Assembly: GCF_988243305.1 (NCBI RefSeq)
Contig: NZ_OZ547136.1
DNA length: 64,000 nt
Reading direction: 5' to 3' (one strand)
Part shown: one piece after another, positions 7,732-28,312 of the stretch
Layout: the number at the start of each line of letters is the position of its first letter
Numbering within the stretch: position 1 is the first letter of the stretch
Position numbers and translations under genes: made by a program
Notes under the pieces: model-generated
The model's database searches: none
What the model saw: only the letters and a program-made list of their open reading frames with translations
Told to the model about the DNA's origin: nothing

Positions 7732-8988
7732 ATGTTCCGCCGTCTGCTTATCGCAACAGTCGTCGGTATTCTCGCGGCCTTTGCCGTTGCCGGGTTTCGT
7801 CATACGATGCTGCTACTGGAGTGGTTGTTCCTCAATAATGACTCGGGCAGTCTGGTCAATGCAGCGACAAATCTTTCCCCGTGGCGACGGCTGCTAACTC
7901 CGGCGCTCGGCGGACTGGCGGCGGGTTTGTTGCTGATGGGCTGGCAGAAATTTACCCAGCAACGCCCTCATGCGCCGACCGATTACATGGAAGCGTTGCA
8001 AACCGATGGGCAGTTTGATTACGCAGCAAGCCTGGTTAAATCGCTTGCCTCTCTGCTGGTAGTAACCAGCGGCAGTGCAATTGGTCGCGAAGGTGCGATG
8101 ATTCTTTTAGCTGCCCTTGCCGCCTCCTGTTTTGCCCAACGTTTTACGCCACGCCAGGAGTGGAAATTATGGATCGCCTGTGGAGCTGCGGCGGGAATGG
8201 CTGCGGCCTATCGCGCCCCGCTTGCTGGCAGTTTATTTATAGCCGAAGTGCTGTTTGGCACTATGATGTTGGCCTCTCTCGGCCCGGTGATTATTTCCGC
8301 CGTCGTGGCGTTGCTGGTTAGCAATCTGATTAATCATAGCGACGCGTTACTCTACAGCGTACAACTCTCAGTGACGATTCAGGCTCGTGACTATGCGCTG
8401 ATTATCAGTACAGGTGTGCTGGCAGGTCTGGGCGGACCACTGTTGTTAACGTTAATGAACGCCTGTCATCGTGGATTTGTAAGTCTCAAACTTGCGCCGC
8501 CCTGGCAACTGGCACTGGGCGGGTTGATCGTGGGTCTGCTTTCCCTGTTCACACCTGCAGTGTGGGGCAACGGCTATAGCACCGTACAATCCTTTTTAAC
8601 CGCCCCGCCACTGTTAATGATCATTGCCGGGATCTTCCTCTGTAAACTGTTTGCCGTGCTGGCGAGTAGTGGTTCTGGCGCGCCCGGTGGTGTCTTTACA
8701 CCGACGCTATTTATCGGTCTTGCCATTGGCATGTTGTATGGTCGTAGCCTGGGATTATGGTTCCCTGATGGCGAAGAAATTACGCTTTTACTCGGATTGA
8801 CCGGGATGGCGACACTGTTGGCGGCAACCACGCACGCGCCGATTATGTCGACGTTGATGATATGTGAAATGACCGGGGAGTATCAGCTACTCCCCGGTTT
8901 ATTGATTGCCTGCGTAATTGCGTCGGTAATTTCGCGGACGTTACACCGTGACTCTATCTACCGCCAGCACACTGCGAAGCATAGCTAA
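7732..8988 (+). CDS. clcB: Voltage-gated ClC-type chloride channel ClcB
   Basis: [17 protein letters not shown]... gives 418 aa from the internal ATG of the 7672 ORF. ClC motifs GSAIGREG and GxFxP (GGVFTP) are present. Confidence 0.93.
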
Positions 8989-13792: not shown

Positions 13793-14101
13793 ATGAAAAA
13801 AGTATTAGCTCTGGTTGTTGCCGCTGCTATGGGTCTGTCTTCTGCTGCCTTTGCTGCAGAGACTGCGACCACACCTGCTCCGACTGCGACGACCACCAAA
13901 GCAGCGCCGGCGAAAACCACACATCATAAAAAACAGCATAAAGCAGCACCTGCCCAGAAAGCGCAGGCGGCTAAAAAGCATCATAAAAATGCCAAAGCTG
14001 AACAGAAAGCTCCTGAACAAAAAGCGCAGGCAGCGAAGAAACACGCCAAGAAACACAGCCATCAGCAACCGGCAAAACCTGCTGCACAACCCGCAGCGTA
14101 A
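13793..14101 (+). CDS. asr: Acid shock periplasmic protein Asr
   Basis: [21 protein letters not shown] signal peptide followed by a Lys/His/Ala/Gln-rich low-complexity repeat ([12 protein letters not shown]). The start is taken at the K-12 Met inside the 13766 ORF. Confidence 0.93.
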
Positions 14102-14193
14102 GTTATCAATAGTAATGCTGGCGCGCCCCCTCGCGCCTGAAAATTACGGTGCTAAGCGGATAACGTTTAGCACCGCCTTTAGCGGAGGGTAGT

Positions 14194-14277
14194 ATGGTGG
14201 GCCGTTATCGCTTTGAGTTCATTCTTATCATCCTTATTTTATGCGCACTGATTGCCGCCCGTTTTTATCTTTCCTGA
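14194..14277 (+). CDS. ydgU: Small membrane protein YdgU (27 aa)
   Basis: ATG GTG GGC CGT TAT... encodes MVGRYRFEFILIILILCALIAARFYLS*. It is below the ORF-track cutoff and was read directly from the sequence; it matches the K-12 small protein at this position. Confidence 0.7.
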   Translation: MVGRYRFEFILIILILCALIAARFYLS

Positions 14278-14376
14278 TCGTAGTTATCTGATTTTACTCC
14301 CACTTTCATCCCGTCCCGTCTATAGTATTTATGAGGGTTTGCTTTTAATAATCATAATTACCCACCAGAGTGTGAT

Positions 14377-15198
14377 ATGCGTACAACCATTGCTGTAGTG
14401 TTGGGTGCAATTAGTTTGACGTCTGCTTTTGTGTTTGCAGATAAACCAGACGTTGCCAAATCGGCAAACGATGAGGTCAGCACCCTGTTTTTTGGTCATG
14501 ATGATCGTGTGCCAGTGAATGACACGACCCAATCACCGTGGGATGCGGTTGGCCAACTGGAAACGGCCAGCGGCAATTTATGTACGGCGACGCTGATTGC
14601 ACCCAATCTGGCATTAACGGCAGGACACTGTTTATTGACGCCGCCAAAGGGTAAAGCCGATAAAGCGGTAGCGCTGCGTTTCGTGTCAAATAAAGGTCTT
14701 TGGCGCTATGAGATCCACGACATAGAAGGCCGCGTTGATCCGACACTGGGAAAGCGGTTAAAAGCAGATGGGGATGGTTGGATTGTTCCTCCCGCAGCTG
14801 CGCCGTGGGACTTCGGTTTGATTGTGCTACGTAATCCCCCTTCTGGCATTACACCGTTGCCGTTATTTGAGGGAGATAAAGCCGCGCTTACCGCCGCATT
14901 AAAATCGGCTGGCCGTAAAGTGACTCAGGCAGGATACCCTGAAGATCATCTCGATACGTTGTACAGTCATCAAAACTGTGAAGTGACTGGCTGGGCGCAA
15001 ACGTCGGTGATGTCACATCAGTGCGATACCTTGCCGGGTGACAGCGGTTCGCCTCTGATGTTGCATACCAATGACGGCTGGCAATTAATTGGGGTGCAAA
15101 GTTCGGCTCCTGCCGCGAAAGATCGCTGGCGCGCCGATAACCGGGCCATTTCTGTTACCGGTTTTCGCGACAAGCTGGATCAACTGTCGCAAAAATAA
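14377..15198 (+). CDS. ydgD: Secreted trypsin-like serine protease YdgD
   Basis: 273-aa ORF with signal peptide and catalytic motifs TAGHC and GDSGSP. Confidence 0.94.
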
Positions 15199-15205
15199 TG
15201 TTCAA

Positions 15206-15231
15206 ACGCTGCCCGACAGTGCGGGCAGCGT
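15206..15231. terminator. Bidirectional hairpin between convergent ydgD and mdtI
   Basis: ACGCTGCCCG-acagtg-CGGGCAGCGT, a 10-bp GC-rich stem located between the two stop codons. Confidence 0.6.
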
Positions 15232-15236
15232 GTTCA

Positions 15237-15566
15237 TCAGGCAAGTTTCACCATGATCATTCCAGCCAACAGCAAGACCAGGCCAATCCAGCCTTTACGA
15301 TTTAACCGTTGACCAAACAAGATCCAACCTGCGGCTAACGTGGCGGCAATACCAAACCCGCCCCACAATGCATAAGCGACAGACAAGTCGATCCCTTTAA
15401 CGGCCTGAGAAAGCGCACTAAAGGCAGCCAGCACCGCCGCCAGGGAGAGCAAGCCAAATATTTTGCGACGAAAGCCGTCAGAAAATTTCAAAAAAACGTT
15501 AGCAACGATTTCCAGCACGATTGCCAATGCCAGCCAGGCGGCGTGAACCCATTCAAACTGCGCCAT
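15237..15566 (-). CDS. mdtI: SMR-family spermidine exporter subunit MdtI
   Basis: 109-aa four-[37 protein letters not shown]. Confidence 0.95.
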
Positions 15567-15918
15567 GGTTCACCTCCAGTTCAGGTTTACGCGCTTTACG
15601 GGTACCTGATTTGATCAATACAATCCCGGCCACCAGGGTGGTTAACCCGGCAATTTTCATCAGCGATAAACTTTCGTCGAATAACAAAACGCTAAACAAG
15701 GTAATAAATAAAATACCGATACCTTCCCACAGCGCATAAGCCACGCCTAAGGCGATTTTTTTAACGGCGAAAGAGAGAAATATATACGACAGAGAAATCA
15801 TCACCAGCATTAAAATAAAGCCGCCATTTCCCTCACTGACGCTCGCCCATTTCATTGACAGCGTACCGGTAATTTCCGTAGCAATAGCCAGGCCTAATAA
15901 AATCCAATAAATATACAT
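15553..15918 (-). CDS. mdtJ: SMR-family spermidine exporter subunit MdtJ
   Basis: 121-aa [29 protein letters not shown], overlapping the mdtI start by 14 nt. Confidence 0.95.
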
Positions 15919-16329
15919 TGTCCTTCTCCTGCAAGAGAATTATTTTAATTTTCGCTTATTTCAGCGAAACCAAAGTAAAGTGGTCAAGCCCCGCGCATAG
16001 CGCAAGCTTAGGCAGAAGAAAGGACTAAAGCGCGTTGCGCCAGTGCTGCTCACCTACGAGCAAGATAGTGGATGAGGTACGAAGATGGGTAAATGTAGAA
16101 AATAACGTCCTGAACAAATTGTCCATAATATTACAATTATCCGCAGTGTTGCTTCTCGTCATCGCGGATGATAATTGTCCTCGGTAGTTGAACACGCCTG
16201 ATTTGTATCATAGCTTAAGAATTAACTCAAAATATTTTCACTTCTTTACCTGAGCAGTTTGATTTTCGTTATGATGACGGAGCGAAAAAGACATTATTAT
16301 TAGCAAAGGAAGAAAAAACGGGGACAAGC

Positions 16330-16466
16330 ATGGCAAAGCCGATCATCACGCTCAATGGCCTAAAAATCGTCATTATGTTGGGAATGCTGGTCATTATTCT
16401 CTGCGGTATCCGTTTTGCCGCCGAGATCATCGTGCCGTTTATTCTCGCATTATTTATTGCTGTTAT
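16330..16466 (+). pseudogene. tqsA: tqsA (AI-2 exporter) 5' fragment, codons 1-45, truncated by the insertion
   Basis: [45 protein letters not shown] then runs into island DNA (IYNLFHITR*). The rest of the gene resumes in frame at 31788. Confidence 0.95.
16458..16466 (+). repeat. attL core TGCTGTTAT
   Basis: Identical 9-mer at 31787-31795. Joining the flanks restores the tqsA reading frame (..FIAV|[10 protein letters not shown]..). Confidence 0.85.
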
Positions 16467-16540
16467 ATATAACTTATTTCACATAACACGTTGATTTAAT
16501 TAAATAATTTTCACCGCAAAAAGTGCCAAAAATCGCAAAA

Positions 16541-16606
16541 TGACTACACCAGTGACTACACCGTTCGGTGCACTGTATGAAACAACGTGGAACAAATAGA
16601 CACAAG
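16541..16606 (+). repeat. Left arm repeat: TGACTACACC x2 followed by 10-bp-phased AACAA units
   Basis: TGACTACACCAGTGACTACACC is identical to 31637-31658. The downstream AACAACGTGGAACAAATAGACACAAG resembles 31678-31705. Candidate integrase/excisionase arm sites. Confidence 0.7.
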
Positions 16607-16825
16607 AAATATACAGGCGGATCATCTTTCCAGGGGGAAGCGCACCAATTCATGAGGGGCGTTAATGTCGATATGGGGATCCCCACCTACCGGAATTTTT
16701 TTCCGGTTAAACGTTAATCAGGCTGGTGGGCTTTACCTGTTCGGTAGGTGTTATGATTATCGTAATACCTTTCCCCCAATGGGGTAAAAGCATCAACCGT
16801 AACGAAAGTCGTTATGGTTGCCACT

Positions 16826-16899
16826 GATACCCCAAATTTGGGTATCACGAGTAAGACCCAAAATCTGGGTGTTACTCTTACTACCCAAACTACGGGTAG
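16826..16899. repeat. Three tandem inverted-repeat units of the form ACCC-N5-7-GGGT, starting about 26-30 bp apart
   Basis: GATACCC-caaattt-GGGTATC (16826-16846), ACCCA-aaatc-TGGGT (16856-16870) and CTACCC-aaactac-GGGTAG (16881-16899). They lie in non-coding DNA. Confidence 0.6.
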
Positions 16900-16918
16900 T
16901 TTCCGTAGTTTCATGGTC

Positions 16919-16938
16919 GAGTTGCAGATCTGCAACTC
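16919..16938. repeat. Perfect 20-bp palindrome GAGTTGCAGATCTGCAACTC
   Basis: Read directly; the sequence is its own reverse complement. It lies 20 bp from the third inverted-repeat unit. Confidence 0.8.
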
Positions 16939-17231
16939 CCCCATTAACCACAGGCGAATTTCCGCCTTCGGTCATTCCTTAATCATCTGCGTAATCATAA
17001 TGATTATTCAGCAAGCGCAATTTTGCACTTTGCTTAAAGTTCAGCGAGTTACCGCGCCGACTTCCTCAAATTGAGGTTTCCGAAAATATCAGCGGGTTAG
17101 CGATTAAGCTGATCATTAATTAAACTGCGAAAATTTCGTAGTTTGTGACTGTCTTTCAGGCAGCTTGTTAACAGTCCTCAGAAGCGAGGGATGTAGCCAC
17201 CCATTTTTGGTCCGTCGGGAATATCAACCAG

Positions 17232-17513
17232 TTACCGCCGCAACCGCTCCGGCTTCTTCCAGTGGTACGTTATTTTCTCCTTCTCCCGATACATCTCCAC
17301 GCGGCGACGGTAGGCCAGCAACTCAAGAACTCTGGTTCGTATGTTGCGCATATCCACGCCATTAAGTTCTATACCATCACGGCGCATCACCTCAGCAACA
17401 ACACGCGCATAGTTTTCGGCTGTCACGCTGTCCGGCTGCGTGGCCTGTTCGTCAGCCTGCTGGCTGATTCCGGCAACGCGGCGGATTAATCCCGTTATTT
17501 CGGCTTCTGTCAT
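17232..17513 (-). CDS. Hypothetical protein (93 aa), last gene of the packaging operon
   Basis: ORF directly downstream of terL (13-nt gap). It is charged with a basic C-terminus, and I recognise no family. Confidence 0.55.
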   Translation of the reverse strand: MTEAEITGLIRRVAGISQQADEQATQPDSVTAENYARVVAEVMRRDGIELNGVDMRNIRTRVLELLAYRRRVEMYREKEKITYHWKKPERLRR

Positions 17514-17526
17514 GCTGCTGACCTCA

Positions 17527-19188
17527 TTACACCCCGCTAAATTCTTCCAGTTTCTGGCGGTGGCTGTCGCTTATATCAAAAGCAAAATCCTCATGCTCTG
17601 CCTGGAATGTACCAAACGCCATCAGCGCCGCCACGCTCGGGTCTATCTTGTTCGGTGATTTTTTCTTGTTCGGCTTGATATTGGCGTTCGCGTCACTCTG
17701 CATCACGACGTTACTCATCGACCAGGACAACACCGGATCGCCACGATGCACAATCACCCTGCGGTTAACAAAAACTTCGAACGATTTCGCCGCCGGACTG
17801 AATCTGAGGTAGGTTTGCGGGAACGGCTCCACCTCAAAACCTGCCCCCTGTAATTGCGTTCTGAGATGCGTGGCGTTCCACGTATCAAAGCCCACCAGCC
17901 TGATATTAAATTTCTCCGCGTCCTGCATGATGTCATCTCTGATCCGGTCGTAATCAATGCAGTCGCCAGGCGTTGTGCGTATCCAGCCTGCTTTAGCCCA
18001 CTGACGATAGATGGCGCGGTTTTTATTGGCGGGGTTCTGTAGCTGAAATTCCGGCAGATAGTGACGGGAAACCAGCATAATGGTTTTACCGACCGGAAAG
18101 GCATAGCACACGCTGGAAATATCGCTGGTTGATGATAAGTCCAGCCCCGCGTAACACTCCTGGCCGTGTAAATCTTCCTCCGTGAACGTTCCGGCACACT
18201 CAGCCCATGCGCCGTTACCCATCCACGGGGTAGCCCCCAGGCACCAGATATTAAATCGCTTTGTCATCATCTCCACCCACTGCGACGGAATACCCCGCGC
18301 TTTCTGGATGGTTGAGGCCAGTTTTTCACGATCCACGGAAACATCAATATTAGGGTTCGCCTTTATCCACATCGCCGGATCATCAACCTCGTTTTCGTCG
18401 TCCAGTTCGTAAATCAGTACAAAAATTGAATCGTTGACCTCTTCGCCGTCCAGGATCTGGCAGCAATAATCATAGTGCTGCTTACAGGCTGAAACGACGT
18501 TACTGCCTGATGTGGTAATAGCAAATAACAGCCCTTCGGGACGTGCGCCCATCCCCAGCTCAAGCGCGGAATAAACGCCGTTATCGGGGTGCAAGTGGTA
18601 TTCGTCCACGATGGAAAGGCTGGGGTTTGTTCCCTCGATGGTTGCCGCTTTTGCTGCCAGCGGCTTTAACAGGCTGTTGCTTTTCGGGTGTATCACCTTA
18701 TGCGCCTGAATATTCACCCGCCTGCGTAACGGTCGGGATAAAAGGCACATCTGACGCGCATCATCAAAGACGATCCGCGCCTGGTCACGGCTCACCGCTG
18801 CGGTGTAAATATCCTGCTGACCGTTCTCCATAATCAGAAACCAGTTAGCCAGAATCGCGGCGGTCGTGGATTTCGCATTTTTGCGCGGCACTTCGATAAA
18901 GGCGCTCGTGTATTTGCGCCGTCCGGTGGCCTTAACCTTAAAGCCGAGGATGCACGCAAAGGCGAACTGCTGCCACGGCTCCAGCTCAATGGGTCTGCCA
19001 CGCATCGGCCCTTTTACGTGCGGGCACACCCTGGAAAAGGCAATAAACCGCTCCACAACCTCACGATCGAACGTGTAAAGGGGGCTTTCAAGGTCCGAAA
19101 AGTACCGTTTAACGGCCTGTTTCAGCCGTTTACAGGCCGGAATTTTGCCCGTTTTTACGTCTTCTGCGTACTTATTCCAGGCGGTCAA
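17527..19188 (-). CDS. terL: Terminase large subunit
   Basis: 553-aa ORF with Walker-A-like region VPRKNAKST, DEYH Walker B and a C-terminal nuclease-like half. Its position after TerS is typical of Terminase_1-family TerL. Confidence 0.88.
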   Translation of the reverse strand: MTAWNKYAEDVKTGKIPACKRLKQAVKRYFSDLESPLYTFDREVVERFIAFSRVCPHVKGPMRGRPIELEPWQQFAFACILGFKVKATGRRKYTSAFIEVPRKNAKSTTAAILANWFLIMENGQQDIYTAAVSRDQARIVFDDARQMCLLSRPLRRRVNIQAHKVIHPKSNSLLKPLAAKAATIEGTNPSLSIVDEYHLHPDNGVYSALELGMGARPEGLLFAITTSGSNVVSACKQHYDYCCQILDGEEVNDSIFVLIYELDDENEVDDPAMWIKANPNIDVSVDREKLASTIQKARGIPSQWVEMMTKRFNIWCLGATPWMGNGAWAECAGTFTEEDLHGQECYAGLDLSSTSDISSVCYAFPVGKTIMLVSRHYLPEFQLQNPANKNRAIYRQWAKAGWIRTTPGDCIDYDRIRDDIMQDAEKFNIRLVGFDTWNATHLRTQLQGAGFEVEPFPQTYLRFSPAAKSFEVFVNRRVIVHRGDPVLSWSMSNVVMQSDANANIKPNKKKSPNKIDPSVAALMAFGTFQAEHEDFAFDISDSHRQKLEEFSGV

Positions 19189-19528
19189 GCTCGTCCTCTT
19201 CTTCTGTTTCCGGTGGATTTTTACGGCGGCTTATCGGGTCAAAACCGAGCAAGGAGGCCATTTTTATCATCACCCTTTCAGCGTCGGATTTTGCGCTTAA
19301 TGCGGGGTTTCTGCTCTCGCCGCCCTGACTGTTAACAATGCTGAACCCGCGCGCCGCAAGGTCTGCAACGGCTTTCCGGTAAATGGAGTAGTTGACACAA
19401 TACAGTTCCAGATTGCTCCAGTCGGCGGGGGTCAGGTCTCCCCGTTCCGCAAGCTGCCGCGATTTTTCCCGCCACTGCTTCACGGCGATGTCATCCAGGT
19501 AGGCGGGGGCTTTCGGTGGTCTTGCCAT
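19172..19528 (-). CDS. terS: Terminase small subunit, P27 family
   Basis: 118 aa. MARPPKAPAYLDDIAVKQWREKSRQLAERGDLTPADWSNLELYCVNYSIYRKA...GFDPISRRK matches the P27/Terminase_4 pattern. It overlaps terL by 17 nt. Confidence 0.85.
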   Translation of the reverse strand: MARPPKAPAYLDDIAVKQWREKSRQLAERGDLTPADWSNLELYCVNYSIYRKAVADLAARGFSIVNSQGGESRNPALSAKSDAERVMIKMASLLGFDPISRRKNPPETEEEDELDRLE

Positions 19529-19651
19529 ACTTATTTTTTCGCCAGATTATTTTTCAAAAAATTCCCGTGCATAAAAATTTGAGGAGGCGTTCGGTGCCCG
19601 GCGGGGTCGGGTTTGTCCTGAAAACGCCCCCCACCCCGTCATACAGCCTCA
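19529..19651 (-). other. Putative cos region (GC-rich segment with nested inverted repeats between the HNH-side genes and terS)
   Basis: Non-coding 123 bp containing GGCGTTCGGTGCCCGGCGGGGTCGGGTTTGTCCTGAAAACGCCCCCCACCCCG. The HNH / gap / TerS arrangement is that of HK97-like cos phages. The cleavage site itself cannot be read from the sequence. Confidence 0.35.
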
Positions 19652-19825
19652 TCAGCGATTGCGGAAACATTCCATAACCTCGCGGTCACGGTCGGTTAAT
19701 CGCTTCGCTGTGATGCGTTCTGCGCGTCCTGACGCTTTATCTTTATGCCCTGTTTCCTGTGTCTTCCATGCGTCACGCTGCCTTATAAGTCCACGGATAA
19801 GGCGGTTTTGTTCCCGCTCATTCAT
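19652..19825 (-). CDS. Small basic hypothetical protein (57 aa), start overlapping the HNH stop
   Basis: The ATG lies inside GCTGATGAATGA, overlapping the HNH stop (coupled arrangement). Product MNEREQNRLIRGLIRQRDAWKTQETGHKDKASGRAERITAKRLTDRDREVMECFRNR is Arg/Lys-rich. It is the 3' third of the 134-aa track ORF, whose remainder overlaps HNH. Confidence 0.4.
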   Translation of the reverse strand: MNEREQNRLIRGLIRQRDAWKTQETGHKDKASGRAERITAKRLTDRDREVMECFRNR

Positions 19826-20258
19826 CAGCGTCATACATCCAGTTATTGCGGTTAGCGGACCGTTCTTCCTCTTCACGAAATCCACCTGCGGCACGCTTGC
19901 TTTTTGTTGCCGGATCAAGCCATTTCGTTTTCTGGTTATGACACGCCTGACACAATGGCTGATGGTTCCATTCGGGCCAGAAGAGAACATCATCGCCGCC
20001 ATCGATGGGGATAATGTGATCCACCACCACGGCGGGCGTATATATCCCCTTCTCAAGGCATCGCACGCATAACGGGTTTTTACTCAGATACATGGCGCGG
20101 TATTTGTCCCACTGTCTGGAGTACCCACGCGCGCGGCGGTGTCCTCGTCTGGCATCCTCTGCACGCCATGCCGCCCGCCTGTGCTCCTCACACTTACCGG
20201 ACTTAACGCGCCTGTTACAGCCTGGTTCTGTACATCGTCTTAATGGTTGCCACGGCAT
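19818..20258 (-). CDS. HNH endonuclease (terminase-associated)
   Basis: 146 aa with CxxC...VDHIIP...N...LCxxCH HNH/zinc motifs (CVRC, DHIIPIDGG, CQACHNQKT), adjacent to the terminase genes. Confidence 0.88.
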   Translation of the reverse strand: MPWQPLRRCTEPGCNRRVKSGKCEEHRRAAWRAEDARRGHRRARGYSRQWDKYRAMYLSKNPLCVRCLEKGIYTPAVVVDHIIPIDGGDDVLFWPEWNHQPLCQACHNQKTKWLDPATKSKRAAGGFREEEERSANRNNWMYDADE

Positions 20259-20554
20259 CAGTACACCCCCACATCACGGTAAGCCGTCCAGAGTGCGCCT
20301 ATCGTCATGGGTACGCGCGTTTTTGCGTTATCCGCGACAATCTGGCGATTTTCATACAGGTGAGCGATAAACATCATGCAGCCAATCTTTATGGCTGGCG
20401 TGAACTCCAGCCCGTCATCAAAGCGCCTGCCTATGTGTATCTGGCACGCCTCAAGCGATGCGGCAATGTATCCGCTGATTAACTGGTCTTCATCGTCGCC
20501 ATCGATGCGGCAATGGAGTTTCACTTCTTCCAGGGTGATAAGTTCTTCTGTCAT
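20258..20554 (-). CDS. gp6-like head-tail connector protein
   Basis: 98 aa. MTEELITLEEVKLHCRIDGDDEDQLISGYIAASLEAC... is the typical Phage_connect_1 N-terminus. The stop overlaps the HNH start (TGATG). Confidence 0.8.
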   Translation of the reverse strand: MTEELITLEEVKLHCRIDGDDEDQLISGYIAASLEACQIHIGRRFDDGLEFTPAIKIGCMMFIAHLYENRQIVADNAKTRVPMTIGALWTAYRDVGVY

Positions 20555-20889
20555 TTTTCCGCGCCCTCACGACAAAGAATTTCAAGGCGTGTCCTGGCGG
20601 CATCCGGCAACGGTTGCCCGATGATATTCAGTACACGCCCCGCCAGCGGCCCTGTATTGACCTTTATCCGACTGGTGGCGTTGATGTCCTTCCGGTAGCG
20701 TATCCATATCCTTACCGTTCCAGTCGCCAGCTCTGCACCTGATGAAATGGCCTCCTTGCTGCTGATCATGTTCACGCTTGCCCAGAGTGTGTGACCGTCC
20801 ACCCACGTTTCGAGTATTTCGCCGGTTATATCCCTGGTCTGTTTCAGGGTCTGAATCGTTACCCTGTCACGCAGTCGCCCTATGTTCAT
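20551..20889 (-). CDS. Head-tail joining (head closure/adaptor, gp7-like) protein
   Basis: MNIGRLRDRVTIQTLKQTRDITGEILETWVDGHTLWASV...VRIWIRYRKDI matches the Phage_H_T_join pattern. ATGA overlaps occur at both ends. Confidence 0.8.
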   Translation of the reverse strand: MNIGRLRDRVTIQTLKQTRDITGEILETWVDGHTLWASVNMISSKEAISSGAELATGTVRIWIRYRKDINATSRIKVNTGPLAGRVLNIIGQPLPDAARTRLEILCREGAEK

Positions 20890-22097
20890 TCCGGTTTTTC
20901 TCCCTCGCTGATTTTTACTTCCTGTTTCCATGCCTGGCTGAACTCATCACCACCATCACGCGGGGACAGCCCTTCACGTTCGCGGGCTTCGTTCGGGCAC
21001 ATAACGCCGGATTTGATGCCGCGTTCATAGGTGGCAAAGCGTTCGCCAGGTGTGGCCCGTAACAGGTCCGCGCTGTCAAACTCCACCTGATACCGGATAC
21101 CAGGTACAGGCGAGGCCACCAGCAGGGCGTTTTTTATCTGCTGCTCAAAGTTCGCCAGCCACGGGCGCATCGTCATGGTGAGAAATGCGCGGCTTGCCTC
21201 GCTGAAGTTGCTGTAGGTGCTGTTGCTGTATTCCTGCAAAAAAATCGGCGAGACGTTGAACATTCGGGCGATGTCTTCAATGGTGAAGCGACGGGAGGCC
21301 AGCCATTCGGCATCCTGATTACTCATGCCCAGCTGCTGATAGCTCATCCCCCCTTCAAGGATGGGCGTTTTTCCGGCGTTTCTGGCCCCTTTGTAGCGTT
21401 CCAGTGCGGCTAATGCCTGTTTGCCCTTCACGCCGTCCAGCCATTCGCCTGACGTGATAACCCCTGCCGCCATCATGCCATCACGCATCACGCTCGCGCC
21501 GTGGCGTTGTTGGGCCAGCCCAAGCCCCAGCGATTCGCGGCAGATGGTTACAGGTGAGCGCCCCATAAAACCGTCATCCGTGGAGTAACGAAGGTGGAGA
21601 ACCTCCCACGGTAAATAGTTGCGGGTGTTTCCGGTGTAGGCGTCAGTGATGCAGTAGCGCCAGTTATGATCACCTGTCTGCTCCACGTTCACCGACTGCG
21701 GCGGGTAAGGATGTAAAGCCACCGGAAAACCATCACGCCCCCACTGAATCACCGCATAAGCATTACCGTTTAACAGGCAGTGGCGGATCATCATTCGCTT
21801 AAACTGGTAGGGAGTCTGCCACGCGTTCGGGCGCTCGTTGAGGATGTGATCGACCGGATGAGAATCAAGCCACTCGCGGGCCTCCTTCCCCTTCTCATTG
21901 CGTACCAGGTACAGGTAACACGGCATGGTAGCCACCGCCTCAGAGATGACCGTCACGGCGTTCATGACGGCGGGCAGTGATTCCGCTGTCCCCGATGATA
22001 CGTACTCACCCGCCCCCGTGTTCGATGTGCCAGCCAGCGCCATAAACTCATCAAGCGTCATGCTGCGCTGCTCTTTTTTTCTTCTGAAAGGCCACAT
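20886..22097 (-). CDS. Portal protein, HK97 family
   Basis: 403 aa with typical HK97-type portal features (..ESLPAVMNAVTVISEAVATMP.., C-terminal acidic tail). It lies next to the protease. Confidence 0.88.
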   Translation of the reverse strand: MWPFRRKKEQRSMTLDEFMALAGTSNTGAGEYVSSGTAESLPAVMNAVTVISEAVATMPCYLYLVRNEKGKEAREWLDSHPVDHILNERPNAWQTPYQFKRMMIRHCLLNGNAYAVIQWGRDGFPVALHPYPPQSVNVEQTGDHNWRYCITDAYTGNTRNYLPWEVLHLRYSTDDGFMGRSPVTICRESLGLGLAQQRHGASVMRDGMMAAGVITSGEWLDGVKGKQALAALERYKGARNAGKTPILEGGMSYQQLGMSNQDAEWLASRRFTIEDIARMFNVSPIFLQEYSNSTYSNFSEASRAFLTMTMRPWLANFEQQIKNALLVASPVPGIRYQVEFDSADLLRATPGERFATYERGIKSGVMCPNEAREREGLSPRDGGDEFSQAWKQEVKISEGEKPE

Positions 22098-22098
22098 A

Positions 22099-22671
22099 TC
22101 ACACCCCCGCTAAATCCACCCACCAGCGGCGATTATCCGCACGCGGCATTTTTTCGGGGTGCTGCTCATACAGGGAACGGCGGGCCAGCTCCACGCCGGA
22201 ATCGGGGTAAGCCGGTACCGATGTAACGGTAATTTCGTACAGTTCCGCCACCAGCACGGTGCGCACGCATGGATCTGTTGTGGTATCCCATACATCCTTA
22301 CGGGAGCGAAAGCCAAAGCTCATCCCCGAGATGTCCCCACGCTTAACCAGTTCGATAACGTCGCGCCCTGTACTGGTATCCGGTGGGGTCAGTTCAAAGC
22401 GTAACCCTGTTTCGTCCTCTTCCAGTTTCAGCGTGCCGGAACGGGTGCGCCCCAGTAACATGCTGTGGTCATGCTCATACAGGCCGCGAACGTCATTACC
22501 CGCCGCAAGCCACTCAGTAAACGCCCCCCGCTGGAATTTTTCGTAAAACTCCCCCCATAGCAGTTCTGAAAGCTTATCCCAGCGAACAACGTAGCCCGTC
22601 AGCGTACCGGCTCCGCTGGTAGTGATTTCCGATGACCGGATTTCCATACTCTTCATAATTTTTTCACCCAT
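22099..22671 (-). CDS. Prohead maturation protease, HK97 (S78) family
   Basis: 190 aa. ..GYVVRWDKLSE...RGLYEHDHSMLLGRT...GDISGMSFGF.. is the pattern of HK97 gp4-like proteases. It sits between the MCP and portal genes. Confidence 0.85.
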   Translation of the reverse strand: MGEKIMKSMEIRSSEITTSGAGTLTGYVVRWDKLSELLWGEFYEKFQRGAFTEWLAAGNDVRGLYEHDHSMLLGRTRSGTLKLEEDETGLRFELTPPDTSTGRDVIELVKRGDISGMSFGFRSRKDVWDTTTDPCVRTVLVAELYEITVTSVPAYPDSGVELARRSLYEQHPEKMPRADNRRWWVDLAGV

Positions 22672-22710
22672 AAAACACTAAAGGGGCTTTTAAGCCCCTT
22701 CTGTATGCTG

Positions 22711-23868
22711 TTAATCGTCGTCCTGTGGCAGTTCCAGAATCTTGATCGCGTTCGAATCCACCACGCCACCGCCTAAATATTTCTGCGTGAAAATTTTGAT
22801 GAAGCCCGGCTCTGTGAGGTTGTCCGGTCTGGTGCGAACACCTGTTTCGTGATCAACAATGTAGTAACCGCGTTTGAAGTCACCCAGGGCAATAACGTTA
22901 TCCGGCATAAACTCCAGATATTCGACCGGAAGGCCCAGTAACGTATCAGGATCACCCGCCTGTAAACGGTCGCGCCAGATGTAATCACCGTTCGCGTTCT
23001 TCACCTTCTGAAGTTTTGCCGCCGTCGTGGAGTTAACCACCCAGACCGCGTTTTTGCGGTATTTTTTACGTAATGCAAATTTCAGGTCGATCAGCGGGTC
23101 CGCAGATGTCCACGCCAGAGATTCGGAAGGTTTAATTACCTGCAACGTACCAAAATCACGCTCTTTGTCGTTCTTCTCTGCACGGGGTACGGATAAAAAA
23201 CCTTTTGCTTTTTTGTCACCGTCGCCCACAACCAGATCGCTTTCTTCGGTTTCCGTGAAGGTGTCGCCAATCTCGCCCGTCAGCCATGAAAGGATGTCCA
23301 CATCGGAAAAATCCACGATTTCCTGTGTGGTGCGCGGGTACGCATAGACCGGATACAGCTTAATGCTCACCTCGTTAATCTGCGGGGTGCTGGTCTGTTC
23401 GCGTGTCTTACCCTCTTCACCGTGGTTAACGGTCGCACCGCCAGCGGAAACAAGCTGCTTAAACTCGTTGCTGCTGATTTTCTTCACGGTACAGATGCGG
23501 CGCATGGTGGACTCATCCGCCAGCATTCGCATGATTTCGGTGTTCAGTTCGGGGATAACGGTATAACCACCATCAGCGGGAACGCCTGTACTTAATGCGC
23601 GGGTTTCACCTGTCAGAATGTAGTTGCGTAGTTCTGCGGGGTCAGTGGTCTGGCTGCTTTTACCTGGCTTGCTGCGCTCTTCGTCTGCAATGGCTTCAAG
23701 GCGGGAAATGTCTTTATCGAGGGATTCAGCTTTAGCGCGTAATTCGTCAAATTTTGCGCCCTCAGCATCGTTAAGACTGCGGTTTTCTTTTTCCGCGTTC
23801 TCCAGCATGTCGCGCATCTGATTTTTAATGGCGGTTTTCTGCTGGCGTAATTCGATTATTCTCGGCAT
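22711..23868 (-). CDS. Major capsid protein, HK97 fold, with N-terminal coiled-coil delta/scaffold domain
   Basis: ATG at 23868 (MPRIIELRQQKTAIKNQMRDMLENAEKE...) is preferred over the TTG at 23913. The product is 385 aa with a coiled-coil N-terminus followed by a typical HK97-family body. Confidence 0.88.
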   Translation of the reverse strand: MPRIIELRQQKTAIKNQMRDMLENAEKENRSLNDAEGAKFDELRAKAESLDKDISRLEAIADEERSKPGKSSQTTDPAELRNYILTGETRALSTGVPADGGYTVIPELNTEIMRMLADESTMRRICTVKKISSNEFKQLVSAGGATVNHGEEGKTREQTSTPQINEVSIKLYPVYAYPRTTQEIVDFSDVDILSWLTGEIGDTFTETEESDLVVGDGDKKAKGFLSVPRAEKNDKERDFGTLQVIKPSESLAWTSADPLIDLKFALRKKYRKNAVWVVNSTTAAKLQKVKNANGDYIWRDRLQAGDPDTLLGLPVEYLEFMPDNVIALGDFKRGYYIVDHETGVRTRPDNLTEPGFIKIFTQKYLGGGVVDSNAIKILELPQDDD

Positions 23869-24083
23869 AAAAAAAAGTCCTGGGGTTAAGTAAGGAACTC
23901 CAGGACGCGGCAAACACTCAACCGTTTTTCATAAGGAAATCAGCAATCGCACCGATCGTTTTCCCGCCTGGTAATGAATATTGGCGAGCACATTAACAGG
24001 CGGGAAAGTGGCCCCAGCGTCCTGGCACCACGGGCGAGAATAATCATGATTCAGTTCGGGTAAAATATGCCGATCCGCTCAGT

Positions 24084-24110
24084 GAACAACGTGGAACAAC
24101 CACGAACAAA
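24084..24110 (+). promoter_or_regulatory. Three 10-bp-phased GAACAA units upstream of the capsid operon
   Basis: GAACAAcgtgGAACAAccacGAACAAataa lies 216 bp upstream of the MCP ATG, between the terminator at 24121-24150 and the operon. A 23-nt stretch matches 30289-30311 (inverted) with 2 mismatches. Confidence 0.55.
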
Positions 24111-24120
24111 TAATTTACAA

Positions 24121-24150
24121 AAAATAACAAAAAGCCGGATTGCTCCGGCT
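24121..24150 (-). terminator. Rho-independent terminator (minus strand)
   Basis: On the minus strand, AGCCGGAgcaaTCCGGCT is followed by TTTTTGTTATTTTTT. It lies 20 nt after the stop of the 74-aa gene. Confidence 0.8.
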
Positions 24151-24169
24151 GTATGTGCTGTATGGGTGC

Positions 24170-24394
24170 TCAGTCTCTGATCCCTTTCAGAAATTCTATC
24201 AATGCATCTGTCTGTTCAGGATTTACTGCCAGCATTTCACCGGATAGCGCGCAACGAACAAAACCATGATGATCCTTTTCAATCAGTGCGCCCGTCTCCA
24301 GGAATGCGCGGTAATCATTGATGCTCATCGTCTCCATGTTGTCAGCATGGTATTTATCACGCTGTTTTAATATCTCATCAAATTTCATCGGCAT
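24170..24394 (-). CDS. Hypothetical protein (74 aa), moron-like unit bracketed by twin terminators
   Basis: ATG at 24394 is preceded by AGAGGAAAAAACA. Product is MPMKFDEILKQRDKYHADNMETMSINDYRAFLETGALIEKDHHGFVRCALSGEMLAVNPEQTDALIEFLKGIRD. I recognise no family. Confidence 0.6.
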   Translation of the reverse strand: MPMKFDEILKQRDKYHADNMETMSINDYRAFLETGALIEKDHHGFVRCALSGEMLAVNPEQTDALIEFLKGIRD

Positions 24395-24488
24395 TGTTTT
24401 TTCCTCTGTTGTGTCTGTTTGTTTCAGATAGTAACTATGCCTGACCGTGACGAAAACCCGGTAATGCGCCATACCGTTTCAACTGGTG

Positions 24489-24513
24489 CAAAAAAAGCCG
24501 GATTTCTCCGGCT
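24489..24513 (-). terminator. Rho-independent terminator (minus strand), near-duplicate of 24121-24150
   Basis: On the minus strand, AGCCGGAgaaaTCCGGCT is followed by TTTTTTTG, downstream of the PerC-like gene. Confidence 0.8.
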
Positions 24514-24563
24514 GTGTGATTAGCTGTCCTGGTAATTGCGCCATATTTCATCACCAGCACCAT

Positions 24564-24791
24564 CTATCCCCATTTCGGCATAAGTGCGATCGACTGCCTT
24601 TTCAGGTCTCCGTAATTATCCGGTGGCTCCGGTGGCCTCTGTGCCTTCCTGGAACATTCCAGCCGTCGCATCGTGATGTGATGCCGTTCCTTGTCTGTCT
24701 CCACCAGCAGCATGACTTCACCCCATCGCGCCGACGCCCTCCGGTAAAATCCTTTAGCCTCGAGTTCCTCCGCTATGCGGTCATGTACCAT
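24564..24791 (-). CDS. PerC-family (PerC/Pch-like) transcriptional regulator
   Basis: ATG at 24791 is preceded by GGGGGTGAGG, right after the ssb stop. The 75-aa product MVHDRIAEELEAKGFYRRASARWGEVMLLVETDKERHHITMRRLEC... resembles the PerC N-terminal signature (..AE.LE.KG.WRRAA.RW..). Confidence 0.65.
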   Translation of the reverse strand: MVHDRIAEELEAKGFYRRASARWGEVMLLVETDKERHHITMRRLECSRKAQRPPEPPDNYGDLKRQSIALMPKWG

Positions 24792-24801
24792 CCTCACCCC
24801 C

Positions 24802-25212
24802 TCAGAACGGAATACCGTCACCGTAAGGGTCATCGCCTCCCGCTGGTGGCTGATTACCCTGTGTGCCTGTGGTTTTGCGTCTGTTCCCGCCAGGACGTGC
24901 CGCACGGGCACTGATTACGCTGTCTGCAATAACCTGCCAGCCCTGCCGCGTTTCTCCGTTCTGTCCGGTCCACTGGCTTACCTGCATCGTGCCGGATACG
25001 CTGGCAACATCGCCTTTTTGATGTTTAGCCAGGAAGTCGGCCTGTTTGCCAAATGCGATGACCGATAACCATAACGTCGCCTGTCCGTCCTGTGCCTGGC
25101 TGCATGGCAAAGATACCGCCATACGCGCCAGCGTCATCGGTGTGCCCTTGCTGGTCTGTTTTACCTGCGGGTCGTCCACCAGCCGCCCGTAAGCGGCTAT
25201 CTGTGCCGTCAT
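24802..25212 (-). CDS. ssb: Single-stranded DNA-binding protein
   Basis: 136 aa with an OB-fold-like N-terminus, a Gly/Pro/Gln-rich linker and a C-terminal acidic tip ..GGDDPYGDGIPF, the canonical SSB tail. Confidence 0.85.
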   Translation of the reverse strand: MTAQIAAYGRLVDDPQVKQTSKGTPMTLARMAVSLPCSQAQDGQATLWLSVIAFGKQADFLAKHQKGDVASVSGTMQVSQWTGQNGETRQGWQVIADSVISARAARPGGNRRKTTGTQGNQPPAGGDDPYGDGIPF

Positions 25213-25460
25213 AATTCCACCTCTCCGGTTTTAACGTTGATGGTTGTTACCTGTTCCGCTTCGGCAATCTCCCGTTCTGTCAGCGTGGCAAAGTTTGCCG
25301 CCGCCGTGGTCATGAATGCGCTTATCAGGTCGGGATGTTCCTTCGCGTATCCTTCCCGCGTGTGGCGGTCTATCGTTCTGATTGCCACCTTTAAAGCGTG
25401 CTCAGTCATGTCTAACGCTTTATATTTTGGCTCTGTTCTGTCTCTGCGTTTTTGGGTCAT
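25209..25460 (-). CDS. Hypothetical protein (83 aa)
   Basis: ATG at 25460 (MTQKRRDRTEPKYK...) with GAGAGG upstream is preferred over 25490, which would overlap the iterons. ATGA overlap with ssb. Confidence 0.55.
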   Translation of the reverse strand: MTQKRRDRTEPKYKALDMTEHALKVAIRTIDRHTREGYAKEHPDLISAFMTTAAANFATLTEREIAEAEQVTTINVKTGEVEL

Positions 25461-25472
25461 TTCTCGCAACCT

Positions 25473-25662
25473 CTCACTTTTTCGCCTCACTTTTTCAAGC
25501 GTCTCACTTCGTCGCAGTTGGGATTTTCGGTTTTTCTATGTGTGTGTTTCATAAGTATTTTTTTACCCCTCACTTTTGAGGATGTATACAGGTCGAAAAG
25601 TGAGGGAGAGCGGGCTAATTTTGGCCCTCTTTCTATCCCCCTCGCTTTTGCTCCTCACTTTT
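25473..25662. repeat. Iteron array (CCTCACTTTT x7, one inverted) with AT-rich core: putative origin of replication
   Basis: Copies lie at 25473, 25485, 25502, 25568, 25596 (inverted), 25640 (1 mismatch) and 25653. They flank a T-rich stretch at 25520-25565, directly downstream of the helicase gene. Confidence 0.6.
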
Positions 25663-27061: not shown

Positions 27062-27357
27062 TTCTTGCCCCTGAATCCGTTAATCATGGTTTTCAGCTTC
27101 TGGATGTTTGCCCGTGCCCTGGCGTTGCTGGTGGGCACGTTATGCGGCGCGGTCTGTACCAGAGAAAAATCACGCCGGAACTGATAAACAGGCATCACGC
27201 AATCATATTCGTAACCTTCACGGCGGTAGGTTACGCGCCGTTCTTCCACGCCCTTAATCATTACCGTGCCGCCGTACTGGTCGCGGTAAATATCACCGCG
27301 CGTAAATTTAGGGTGAGTGTTGCCACTGGCAGTTAAGCCAGAATATTTAAGTTTCAT
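27058..27357 (-). CDS. Hypothetical protein (99 aa; possibly DUF4222-like)
   Basis: ATGA overlap with the helicase start. GDIYRDQYGGTVMIKGVEERRVTYRREGYEYDCVMPVYQFRRDF resembles a small prophage family, recalled only loosely. Confidence 0.55.
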   Translation of the reverse strand: MKLKYSGLTASGNTHPKFTRGDIYRDQYGGTVMIKGVEERRVTYRREGYEYDCVMPVYQFRRDFSLVQTAPHNVPTSNARARANIQKLKTMINGFRGKK

Positions 27358-27362
27358 TATTT

Positions 27363-27596
27363 TTATTCTCCGGTGTGCTGTTCTTTATATCTGTCGTGCA
27401 ATAGATCTATTTCTTGCAGTTCCATTATTACAGGCTCAAGAAGCGTTATTAATGCCGTGGCAATTCTTGATTTTTGTTTGTCGCGTTCATTGTCGCCAAG
27501 TGTTTCAAGCCATATGCGCAATATTTCCAGCATGTTTTCACTGTGAGAAAGTGCAAGAAATACGCGGTCTATTGTTTCGTGGTAAATATCACGCAT
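27363..27596 (-). CDS. Hypothetical protein (77 aa)
   Basis: Tightly packed minus-strand ORF (MRDIYHETIDRVFLALSH...) whose start lies 2 nt after the upstream stop. Confidence 0.5.
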   Translation of the reverse strand: MRDIYHETIDRVFLALSHSENMLEILRIWLETLGDNERDKQKSRIATALITLLEPVIMELQEIDLLHDRYKEQHTGE

Positions 27597-27597
27597 A

Positions 27598-28224: not shown

Positions 28225-28312
28225 AACGGCTCCTAGTTTACGTTGTTGGTTAGACGCCCCGTATGTGTTCCCAGCACTGCGGGGCGTTGATTTTTGTGTA
28301 ATGGCAAGTACA

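Follow-up and report, generated by a model that had tools for sequence, protein, structure and literature searches.

What is the role of a repeat-rich, non-coding stretch of about 620 bp at the end of a phage satellite? The stretch lies at positions 16607-17231 of the window, the 64,000-nucleotide piece of DNA that was analysed, and it is the integrase-distal non-coding arm of a capsid-forming PICI (cf-PICI) inserted in tqsA. A first-pass annotation, made from the letters of the DNA, had described it as a non-coding cluster of sites and not a gene, located between attL and the last gene of the operon, and had listed three ACCC...GGGT inverted repeats, a perfect palindrome and further repeats. 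All of these were present in the sequence with coordinates that were off by at most one base, TGGGGATCCCCA being found at 16674-16685 (previously 16673-16684) and the CCGGAA-ttttt-TTCCGG hairpin at 16690-16706 (previously 16691-16707). The description as a non-coding cluster of sites also held, with no PHROG match and neutral substitutions in six frames. Counting inverted repeats (stem >= 5, loop <= 8) gave 31 in 16607-17231 compared to 6.1 ± 2.9 in dinucleotide shuffles, and 0 of 300 shuffles reached 31; two equal-length coding controls had 3 inverted repeats each. Thus, the palindrome clustering in this stretch is far beyond chance.

The 620 bp had previously been treated as one element. Instead, we found it to be a patchwork in which homology breaks off sharply, a mosaic comprising five or more modules that are inherited independently, the leftmost part being attP arm DNA. 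From left to right, an attP arm is followed by a second arm segment and by a conserved palindrome cassette termed module B, after which come a small GC hairpin and repeats of a 93-aa gene's 3' end. The island ends at the attL crossover core, placed approximately at 16459-16468 (~GCTGTTAT), where the tqsA pseudogene stops in an identical island; GCTGTTAT is repeated in attR at about 31786-31795, both being read from the sequence. The integrase-specific attP arm (module A1, 16490-16600) contains two arm-type sites, TGACTACACC, at 16541-16550 and 16553-16562, and a 23-mer of this module, TGACTACACCAGTGACTACACCG, also adjoins int at 31637-31659, so that TGACTACACC is present twice there too (31637-31658). 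A1 accompanied every integrase that was 99-100% identical and never accompanied integrases that were 67-89% identical or of another type. The second arm segment (module A2, 16601-16821) was found with integrases only 68-76% identical, was 84% conserved in the Shigella cf-PICI L054 and was also present in EcCICFT073. In addition to TGGGGATCCCCA, A2 contains ACCGGAA-T5-TTCCGGT at 16689-16707 and a hairpin at 16800-16814, followed on the minus strand by a U-rich run (UUGAUGCUUUU; hairpin and run together at 16815-16780). We read the latter hairpin as a putative terminator; a consensus terminator scan gave no flag there.

To the right of module B lies the hairpin H0 (AGGCG-AATTTC-CGCCT, 16952-16967). 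Position comparison across PICIs revealed that this place is always taken by some GC-armed, AT-centred palindrome, the sequence of which differs between PICIs. Module C (17029-17237) carries copies of the 93-aa gene 3' end with a downstream motif, at 17037-17054, 17085-17102 and 17220-17237, and the repeat gave 5 matches compared to 0.77 expected. Each copy, in our reading, would fit the IHF consensus WATCARNNNNTTR, and CCTCAAATTGAGG is found within the module at 17064-17076. EcCICFT073 and L054 each carry 3-4 repeats of these units, and module C is 86% conserved in L054. Elsewhere, the cargo slot of the arm holds a Q antiterminator gene, a GTGAC x4 array, or an iteron cluster between two copies of B.

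Module B (16822-16947, 126 bp) is the core of the finding. It comprises S1 (GATACCC-caaattt-GGGTATC, 16826-16846), S2 (16849-16877, with the core ACCCA-aaatc-TGGGT at 16856-16870 and the arms GAGTAA/TTACTC), S3 (CTACCC-aaactac-GGGTAG, 16881-16899, the element extending to 16913) and P, the perfect 20-bp palindrome GAGTTGCAGATCTGCAACTC (16919-16938). S3 overlaps a 9-nt direct repeat (GTAGTTTCC/GTAGTTTCA, 16896-16913), and some relatives have lost one copy of this repeat. A spacing of exactly 27 bp separates the starts of the three ACCC-N7-GGGT cores (16829, 16856 and 16883). This pattern had four matches in the 64-kb window, three of them within 70 bp, compared to 0.70 expected, and P was unique in the window, where 0.02 occurrences were expected. 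All 8 stem pairs of P were kept in 36 relatives, one pair being G-U in 3 of them. The second ACCC...GGGT repeat of the first-pass annotation was confirmed as a palindrome, but of 36 distinct relatives just one had its outer A-T pair, CCCC...GGGT being found in the rest; the site is better described as CCCA-N5-TGGG with the flank GTGTT.

We found that B was conserved by itself in many E. coli PICIs. It was 91-94% identical between islands whose adjacent 93-aa gene was 80-86% identical at the DNA level, indicating that B is under constraint. Substitutions were concentrated in S1, and the stretch from S2 to P was spared. Position and orientation were also fixed, every copy of B adjoining the 93-aa gene on its 3' side. 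This gene (17232-17513, minus strand; phrog_1561) is the last of the packaging operon. The structure predicted for its protein consisted of three helices (pLDDT 72) and had no fold match with E < 2. The best 120 homologues listed were from E. coli or Shigella where named, and a scan of genome contigs with the protein returned one locus only. Identity with RgdR was rejected, as RgdR is a 99-aa protein with an RGD motif that is encoded elsewhere in PICIs.

The distribution of B was that of a cassette. B co-occurred with at least four packaging types, including cf-type TerL/TerS, DUF1441 with a ClpP-capsid fusion, TerS with MCP, and Rpp-type modules, with four Rep iteron types (TGTTCACC, GTCTACC, CTCACTTTT and GCGGGTTA) and with three integrase types. 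The arm was 100% identical in PCN033, though Rep differs there. Moreover, B was absent from EcCICFT073 and from L054, the TerS of which is 100% identical. Because the types of machinery vary among islands with B, and because these two islands lack it, B is an optional cassette and not ori, cos or att. Plasmid matches to B were PICIs. A blastn search of the phage database with B gave no match, 20-nt matches falling under the threshold, and a literature search by sequence string found nothing. No link to B was found in EHEC small-RNA catalogues, and tqsA is intact in Sakai, which makes the Sakai data unusable here.

The palindromes of B also occur inside temperate phage genes for proteins with KilA-N, a DNA-binding domain related to APSES. 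The KilA-N gene sb46 of ST64B agreed with S1 in 21 of 22 bases, that of phage SKA5 with S2 in 17 of 18, and one of the 2H10 type with P in 20 of 21; inside KilA-N genes the 20-22-mer of P encodes ELQICNS. Furthermore, the neighbouring G hairpin of L002 matched ST64B in 23 of 25 bases, and H0 variants were similar to KilA-N palindromes of two classes, G (GGCGGAATTCCGCC) and SE1. The matches of S1, S2, P and the G hairpin were 92-95% identical over 18-25 nt, with E values of 6e-6 to 2e-3 obtained by blastn-short against a database of ~2 kb; S3 had no counterpart among the 11 KilA-N genes sampled. In IMG/VR, 19 further S1 copies with a similar A/T-rich spacer were found inside KilA-N genes, and among 120 new hits for ACACCCA-N5-TGGGTGT, the S2 pattern, 91 fell within KilA-N coding regions.

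The 11 genes had been chosen by protein identity alone (33-100%) from seven host genera plus P1 kilA. In all 11, a palindrome was present in one and the same alignment gap, the variable linker of the KilA-N domain, with sequence classes that differed between genes, and the positions of the matched palindromes coincided in the KilA-N protein alignment. The linker palindrome was top-scoring in 10 of the 11 genes, the imperfect Stx2c palindrome being placed by eye, and in 9 of 11 its score was matched by at most 8 of 200 codon shuffles. A KilA-N homologue was found neither in the window nor in the sequenced part of any locus with B. The related-locus search with KilA-N returned only 98-100% identical copies, and the literature search for KilA-N plus palindrome found nothing.

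These observations led us to favour, as a tentative reading that falls somewhat short of an even chance, that B is a series of operator-like DNA sites at which phage proteins of the KilA-N type act in trans. B, probably with the neighbouring small hairpins, would then be an accessory non-coding cassette of operator-like palindromes. Each palindrome class would be the cognate binding site of the KilA-N allele carrying it, and the satellite would string several classes together, namely S1, S2 and P plus G/H0-type hairpins. Because PICIs with B lack a KilA-N gene of their own, a phage residing in the same cell or infecting it would provide the binder in trans, and through the array phage regulators would be sensed or titrated by the satellite, or would act on it. 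We infer from the shared sequences that KilA-N proteins may bind these palindromes and that binding may matter for the satellite. A more far-reaching form, in which KilA-N proteins each recognise the palindrome in their own linker and satellites array several classes as a multi-phage hub, seems doubtful. A site for a helper-phage protein was among the interpretations offered previously, and it gains support from the presence of the same palindromes in phage KilA-N genes and in PICIs without KilA-N, so that the earlier interpretation is partly supported. The results gave no pointer to two of the other proposals, transcription anti-termination and partition of the excised circle.

Lambda offers a precedent for a gene that contains the binding site of its own product, the dyad-symmetric iterons of ori lying inside the linker-coding part of gene O. 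Similarly, the KilA-N palindromes lie in the variable linker-coding segment of the gene for a DNA-binding protein, and site class and protein allele travel as one mosaic unit. Unlike lambda ori, the putative KilA-N sites usually consist of one palindrome and not of four iterons plus an AT-rich region, and in the satellite the sites stand alone, with the gene absent. The Bro-family protein Roi of HK022 reportedly binds a site in its own gene beside an IHF site. It is comparable as a nin-region regulator of the Bro network with an intragenic site, and IHF-consensus motifs lie near B too. However, Roi is not homologous to the KilA-N proteins studied here (BLASTP E = 7) and the roi gene does not contain the B palindromes; it was therefore rejected as a direct homologue and serves as a precedent only.

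Several observations speak against the KilA-N model, among them the missing counterpart of S3 and the single reading frame that the matched palindromes share, which is treated below. For HK106, a phage that experiments have established as a helper of the prototype cf-PICI (10.1101/2022.09.08.507074), no KilA-N gene is annotated in the early-right/nin region (bases 26000-41468), suggesting for the region examined that B is not needed for induction by HK106. In addition, the fixed position of B 3' of the 93-aa gene has no account in this model.

Palindromes fit DNA dimer sites and RNA or DNA hairpins alike, and the same data therefore fit an RNA element. B might be a structured RNA, transcribed from the minus strand as the 3' UTR of the late packaging operon and serving as a stabiliser, a processing site or the precursor of a 3'-UTR-derived small RNA, and the matching KilA-N palindromes would then be intragenic RNA hairpins. 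We consider this rather unlikely. REP elements and lambda sib are 3'-UTR hairpin arrays that protect or process mRNA, and B is like them a stable hairpin cluster past the last gene of an operon and before a likely terminator. Terminator-like hairpins were found on its far side both in L002, where a GC hairpin and then UUACUUAUU lie beyond B, and in the window (16815-16780). The folding of B was very stable, with z values of -8.0 (minus strand) and -8.2 (plus strand), a hairpin always occupies the H0 position while its sequence varies, and the Q gene of L052, the other protein-coding cargo seen in the slot, is co-oriented with the operon. One compensatory change was also found, an A-T pair of S1 replaced by C-G.

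However, this was the only pair changed on both sides in the covariation test, and the value obtained (0.025; 36 distinct sequences with a mean column identity of 93% and low variation) equalled the shuffled mean (256/500). Most variation in B breaks pairs, loops and spacers are as conserved as stems, the outer arms of S2 are not kept paired in relatives, and its extended stem is only 85% paired. The asymmetry between G-U and A-C indicated different strands at different pairs. An Rfam scan of 14000-34000 gave no match at E <= 1 except a chance snoRNA match elsewhere. A terminator scan of 16300-17600 found two terminator-like sites compared to 1.7 expected, one of which was S2 on the plus strand; the minus-strand hairpins downstream of B had partial U runs only, and in the consensus scan no canonical terminator or promoter delimited a discrete small RNA. 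Unlike REP and sib arrays, B is conserved in sequence beyond pairing, shows no covariation above that of shuffles and shares its sequences with phage coding regions. The first-pass annotation had proposed a structured RNA and a search for conservation and covariation in related islands. B was conserved there at 91-94%, but covariation did not exceed that of shuffles, and the RNA proposal received no support. An antiterminator RNA resembling HK022 put consists of two stem-loops that lie downstream of a promoter and affect RNA polymerase in cis. The Rfam scan bears on this variant indirectly, and the position of B at the end of the operon seems to argue against it.

B might also have no function in the satellite. 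It would then be debris left by recombination, or else a selfish element or linker, consisting of captured KilA-N linker-coding DNA or of small palindromes that spread, or that mediate mosaic recombination between phage and satellite; we judge this unlikely. The patchwork of the arm with its sharp homology breaks, the repeated 3' ends of the 93-aa gene and the duplication of B around an inserted iteron cluster in some islands are consistent with debris, as is the fact that EcCICFT073 and L054 do without B. Furthermore, S1, S2 and P share one frame, in which they correspond to the KilA-N linker peptides DTPNLGI, TQNLGV and ELQICNS, and one KilA-N linker carries two TQNLG units in tandem. This frame was open in 41 of 42 variants, and a single shared open frame of the matched palindromes could mean that B is simply linker-coding DNA that was captured. 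Debris would nevertheless be expected to decay and to vary in extent, whereas B clearly exceeds the neighbouring coding gene in conservation across dozens of islands, keeps its place and orientation, and never occurs with flanking KilA-N coding sequence.

It is very improbable that B belongs to the core machinery of the island, as an origin or second cis replication site (like P4 crr), as cos, pac or cosB, or as an extension of attP with AlpA/Xis sites, and the distribution of B has already largely refuted this. The proximity of attL and the consensus IHF motifs nearby would suit such a role, and the Xis sites of lambda are in the int-distal arm. However, B begins ~355 bp from the att core, and shared arm-type repeats together with integrase co-inheritance were found for 16490-16600 only, B occurring with three integrase types; integrase or Xis sites were therefore rejected. 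In L014, L025, L007 and L037 an iteron cluster is flanked by two copies of B, which would suit an origin, and like the iterons of a PICI ori, B is a cluster of short, repeated, putatively protein-binding motifs in non-coding DNA of such an island. Yet the PICI ori is located 3' of rep (PMC6092414), where the iterons of this island (CTCACTTTT) cluster at 25450-25660, and the distal arms of four islands (the one in the window, L001, L002 and L003) contained no cognate iterons. Unlike the ori, B is not beside rep, has no AT-rich melting region and is common to four iteron types, and it was rejected as a replication origin. EcCICFT073 has cos1/cos2 and the cosB R elements bound by Rpp-TerS (PMC6739421, PMC6092414). 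Like these cis sites, B is found towards the end of the packaging module and not far from the same 93-aa gene, but the cos sites carry lambda cosN and flank rpp upstream of that gene, whereas B has no cosN (<=2 mismatches), is absent from EcCICFT073, is independent of packaging type and is missing from L054 despite its identical TerS. B was thus rejected as cos as well, and the HNH-terS gap (19529-19655) is the likely cos of this island.

That B encodes a small protein, from the plus-strand frame reading ..DTPNLGITSKTQNLGVTLTTQTTGSFRSFMVELQICNS.. or from a minus-strand 76-aa ORF, is scarcely credible and was rejected, for although the plus-strand frame is the one open in nearly all variants and survives a 9-nt in-frame deletion, its synonymous substitutions numbered 10 compared to 9.1 expected, in each of the six frames synonymous and non-synonymous changes (36 distinct substitutions) were close to neutral expectation, neither start codons nor C-terminal tails were conserved across island types, the ORFs across the repeats had no PHROG family match, and no convincing ribosome-binding site was seen.

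In the accounts consulted, contact between helper and PICI in Gram-negatives is described only as activation of alpA by the helper. If B is an array of sites for KilA-N-type proteins, a cassette copying cis elements of phage regulator genes would be a concrete, testable contact point between satellite and phage. Even if B should prove to be an RNA element or mere debris, the distal arm of the PICI has been mapped module by module, and a cargo slot has been defined that also carries the Q antiterminator and extra iteron clusters. The fixed spot of the palindrome in the KilA-N genes sampled suggests where this very widespread family may bind, and KilA-N specificity would become readable from sequence if the palindromes are binding sites. 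Recognition of the linker palindrome in the own gene, if true, would be a general and so far undescribed feature of KilA-N (Bro-family) proteins, and an array hub, if true, would mean that many resident or helper phages are sensed by the satellite, or that their regulators are titrated.

The E. coli chromosome in the window carries a 15.3-kb island that interrupts tqsA, between mdtJ and pntB; an annotated island in strain PCN033 is identical across the distal arm. On the minus strand we found int (30382-31611), an AlpA-type regulator with a replication module, and an HK97-like head and packaging module of capsid, protease, portal, connectors, HNH, TerS (19172-19528) and TerL (17527-19188), with a 93-aa gene (17232-17513, phrog_1561) last in the operon. 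This is the capsid-forming PICI (cf-PICI) gene set, as in EcCIEDL933 (10.1101/2022.09.08.507074). The early and replication region at 25661-29771 is unlike that of PCN033 despite the 100% identical distal arm, encoding an AAA_25 Rep, a 344-aa protein and a Rha-domain protein where PCN033 has a P4-alpha-like primase, and this comparison shows a recent module exchange inside one island lineage. In all PICI types seen, the 93-aa protein is the last of the operon. It gave no Pfam match and no informative fold match, and was modelled as three helices (pLDDT 72). Mutation of a candidate equivalent, 'hypothetical gene 1792', severely reduced transfer (10.1101/2022.09.08.507074).

All of the repeats that the first-pass annotation had named between attL and this gene were found, at positions no more than one base off. 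Spaced exactly 27 bp from one another, the three ACCC-N7-GGGT cores begin at 16829, 16856 and 16883, and the pattern occurs four times in the whole window against 0.7 expected. The interval 16607-17231 has 31 short inverted repeats, compared with 6.1 in shuffles (0 of 300 reach 31) and 3 in coding controls, and the 161-nt core folds with a z of about -8 on either strand.

The stretch had been taken as a single 620-bp element, but of 5,426 complete E. coli genomes compared by blastn 1,496 contain some part of it and only 179 contain at least 80%, and the modules delimited by local comparison indicate that it is a mosaic. Module A1 (16490-16600) holds two integrase arm-type sites, TGACTACACC; its 23-mer recurs beside int at 31637-31659. 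A1 accompanies every 99-100% identical integrase and was seen with none of 67-89% identity or of other type, and we assign it as attP arm DNA. Module A2 (16601-16821) is 84% shared with EcCICFT073 and a Shigella cf-PICI. Module B (16822-16947) contains the three ACCC/GGGT palindromes, S1 (16826-16846), S2 (16849-16877) and S3 (16881-16899), a 9-nt direct repeat and the 20-bp palindrome P (16919-16938). A small hairpin with GC arms, H0 (16952-16967), follows; some hairpin always occupies this position, its sequence varying between islands. Module C (17029-17237) comprises repeated last codons of the 93-aa gene and a downstream motif fitting the IHF consensus, in units also repeated in EcCICFT073 and the Shigella cf-PICI (L054). 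Across the island, just downstream of int, the IHF-like motif is matched once more (30250-30265; AAAAATCAGCTACTTA, 2 mismatches).

In every B locus (more than 85, of which 50 came from the first scan) the 93-aa gene lies just upstream of B in the same orientation, 60-560 bp off. The accompanying genes are of four packaging types (cf-type TerL/TerS; DUF1441 with a ClpP-capsid fusion; TerS with capsid and decoration; Rpp), Rep proteins of four iteron types (TGTTCACC, GTCTACC, CTCACTTTT and GCGGGTTA) and three integrase types. B is absent from EcCICFT073, in which rpp, with one cos site on each side, lies upstream of the 93-aa gene, and from L054, in which TerS is 100% and TerL 98% identical. B is thus an optional cassette, independent of PICI function other than its link to the 93-aa gene. 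It is also constrained: copies are 91-94% identical to that of the window where the adjacent 93-aa gene DNA is 80-86% identical, and from S2 to the palindrome B is nearly invariant, loops and spacers included.

In other islands the slot at about 16822-17047 holds a Q antiterminator gene, four GTGAC repeats with a terminator, or an iteron cluster. The Q gene, in a P4-like satellite of E. coli 2018-166 (L052, 9001-10007), has on its two sides segments with homology to 16698-16822 and 17063-17269 of the window, so that the slot behaves as a cargo hotspot. In L054, from Shigella flexneri, positions 4471-4705 replace B with GTGACGGAGA GTGACAACCA GTGACACACC GTGACAAAAA, four GTGAC repeats 10 bp apart that resemble the integrase arm-type site AGTGACTACACC, and then a clean intrinsic terminator. 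Four related cf-PICI loci (L014, 1060-1378; L025, reverse complement, 1054-1198 and 8742-8865; also L007 and L037) carry at the distal end a second iteron cluster, with GCGGGTTA repeats around an AT-rich centre sandwiched by two direct B copies. L025 has a separate cluster of the same iteron about 7.6 kb away, whose place fits an ori by rep, and no rep gene was identified there; the arrangement is reminiscent of P4 ori plus crr. Module B is also contained in NZ_CP148328.1 (10,790 bp; H82), an entry classed among non-mobilisable E. coli plasmids that may be an excised circular PICI.

An IMG/VR scan for the 20-bp palindrome returned PICIs plus many large prophage contigs, where it lies in a nin-region gene for a 265-aa KilA-N domain protein and encodes ELQICNS. 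To avoid ascertainment bias, KilA-N homologues were picked from a phage collection by protein identity alone, and ten were read. All 11 genes (L056, L264-L273), including P1 kilA and genes of Ralstonia and Acinetobacter phages, have a palindrome of 20-26 bp in one variable linker, between a conserved helix (..QT.ELI.EL) and a conserved strand (PV.VI.GG..QGTY); it is the top-scoring palindrome in ten. The sequences differ and fall into several classes, and in nine of the 11 genes no more than 8 of 200 codon-shuffled versions equalled the palindrome score. A linker palindrome looks to be a general trait of the KilA-N family that has not been described; we found no paper on KilA-N palindromes. 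Four of the classes match those of the PICI arm. ST64B sb46 carries GATACCCAAAATTTGGGTATC, equal to S1 in 21 of 22 bases, and ACCGAGGGCGGAATTCCACCCTCGG, equal in 23 of 25 to the GC hairpin flanking B in a related island (L002), while the SKA5 gene carries AACACCCAGAATTTGGGTGTT, matching S2. P occurs in the 2H10 or Stx2a type, Yersinia YeP2 and a Morganella phage, variants of the GC hairpin in Stx2c phages and Serratia BZS1, and the SE1 palindrome resembles an H0 variant of other PICIs. In IMG/VR, 91 of 120 new matches to ACACCCA-N5-TGGGTGT fell inside KilA-N coding regions, as did 19 matches to S1 with an AAAT-type spacer, the other listed S1 matches having unrelated spacers. One linker holds a tandem pair of TQNLG units, as in B. 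Neither the window nor the sequenced part of any B locus has a KilA-N homologue.

The protein itself does not require a palindromic gene, so different palindromes at one spot in 11 homologues point to a role of the nucleic acid itself. The KilA-N domain binds DNA, and the closest precedent is the lambda ori, whose dyad-symmetric iterons lie within the linker-coding part of gene O. We therefore favour, though tentatively, the reading that each linker palindrome is the cognate site of the KilA-N allele carrying it and that B is an array of several classes of such sites, to which proteins from a co-resident or an infecting phage would bind in trans; the satellite could benefit by sensing, by titration or by being acted on. 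However, HK106, whose helper role for the prototype cf-PICI is proven (10.1101/2022.09.08.507074), has no annotated KilA-N gene in its bases 26000-41468, so that induction by this helper does not require B. S3 has no phage counterpart so far, this reading does not explain why B is always linked to the 93-aa gene, and binding of the palindromes by KilA-N proteins is inferred from sequence.

A structured 3' UTR or small-RNA precursor, in line with the structured RNA that the first-pass annotation had envisaged, is an unlikely alternative that fits the position and stability of B. B would be transcribed with the operon, as it is followed on the minus strand by terminator-like hairpins and the Q gene replacing it in L052 is co-oriented with the operon. 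However, conservation at the sequence level and absent covariation do not fit. Across 36 distinct copies and four local hairpins 93% of cells pair, with a compensatory change at one pair in one sequence, and the covariation score equalled the shuffled mean, low variation leaving little power. The second ACCC...GGGT outer pair occurs in the window type only, many relatives have breaks in the extended S2 stem, the asymmetry between G-U and A-C favours one strand at some pairs and the other strand at others, and the arm has no Rfam match. About as doubtful, or slightly more so, is that B is captured linker DNA, or that its palindromes mediate mosaic recombination; the patchwork arm, the duplications and the single open frame shared by S1, S2 and P agree with this, but the excess conservation of B over the adjacent 93-aa gene does not.

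A core-machinery role is highly improbable, as the varied Rep, packaging and integrase types and the two islands lacking B argue against ori, cos or att. A PICI ori is expected 3' of rep (PMC6092414), and CTCACTTTT iterons in both orientations flank an AT-rich stretch at 25450-25660, the probable origin, immediately 3' of the gene for the AAA_25 Rep (25661-27061); no cognate iterons were found near B. Nor was a lambda-type cosN found, and among the modules only A1 tracks the integrase. The gap between HNH and terS (19529-19655) has a GC-rich run (GGGGTGGGGGGCG...CCCGACCCCGCCGGGC) and, by analogy with HK97, is the likely cos. The EcCICFT073 cos sites (L053, from CFT073; 2540-2600 and 3260-3320) are inverted lambda-type cosN copies, the second just upstream of the 93-aa gene with three CCGGACAT repeats, candidate R elements, beside it. 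That B encodes a small protein is hardly credible and, like the core-machinery role, close to excluded: in agreement with the arm having been called non-coding, ORFs across the repeats had no family match, and among 36 distinct substitutions in relatives synonymous changes lay at the neutral expectation in all six frames.

Collectively, B would be a cis-acting site array, its repeats confirmed and its function inferred. Of the options first raised, RNA structure found no support, whereas a site for a helper-phage protein gains evidence through the KilA-N palindromes, which connect B with a general feature of KilA-N genes that has apparently not been described before.
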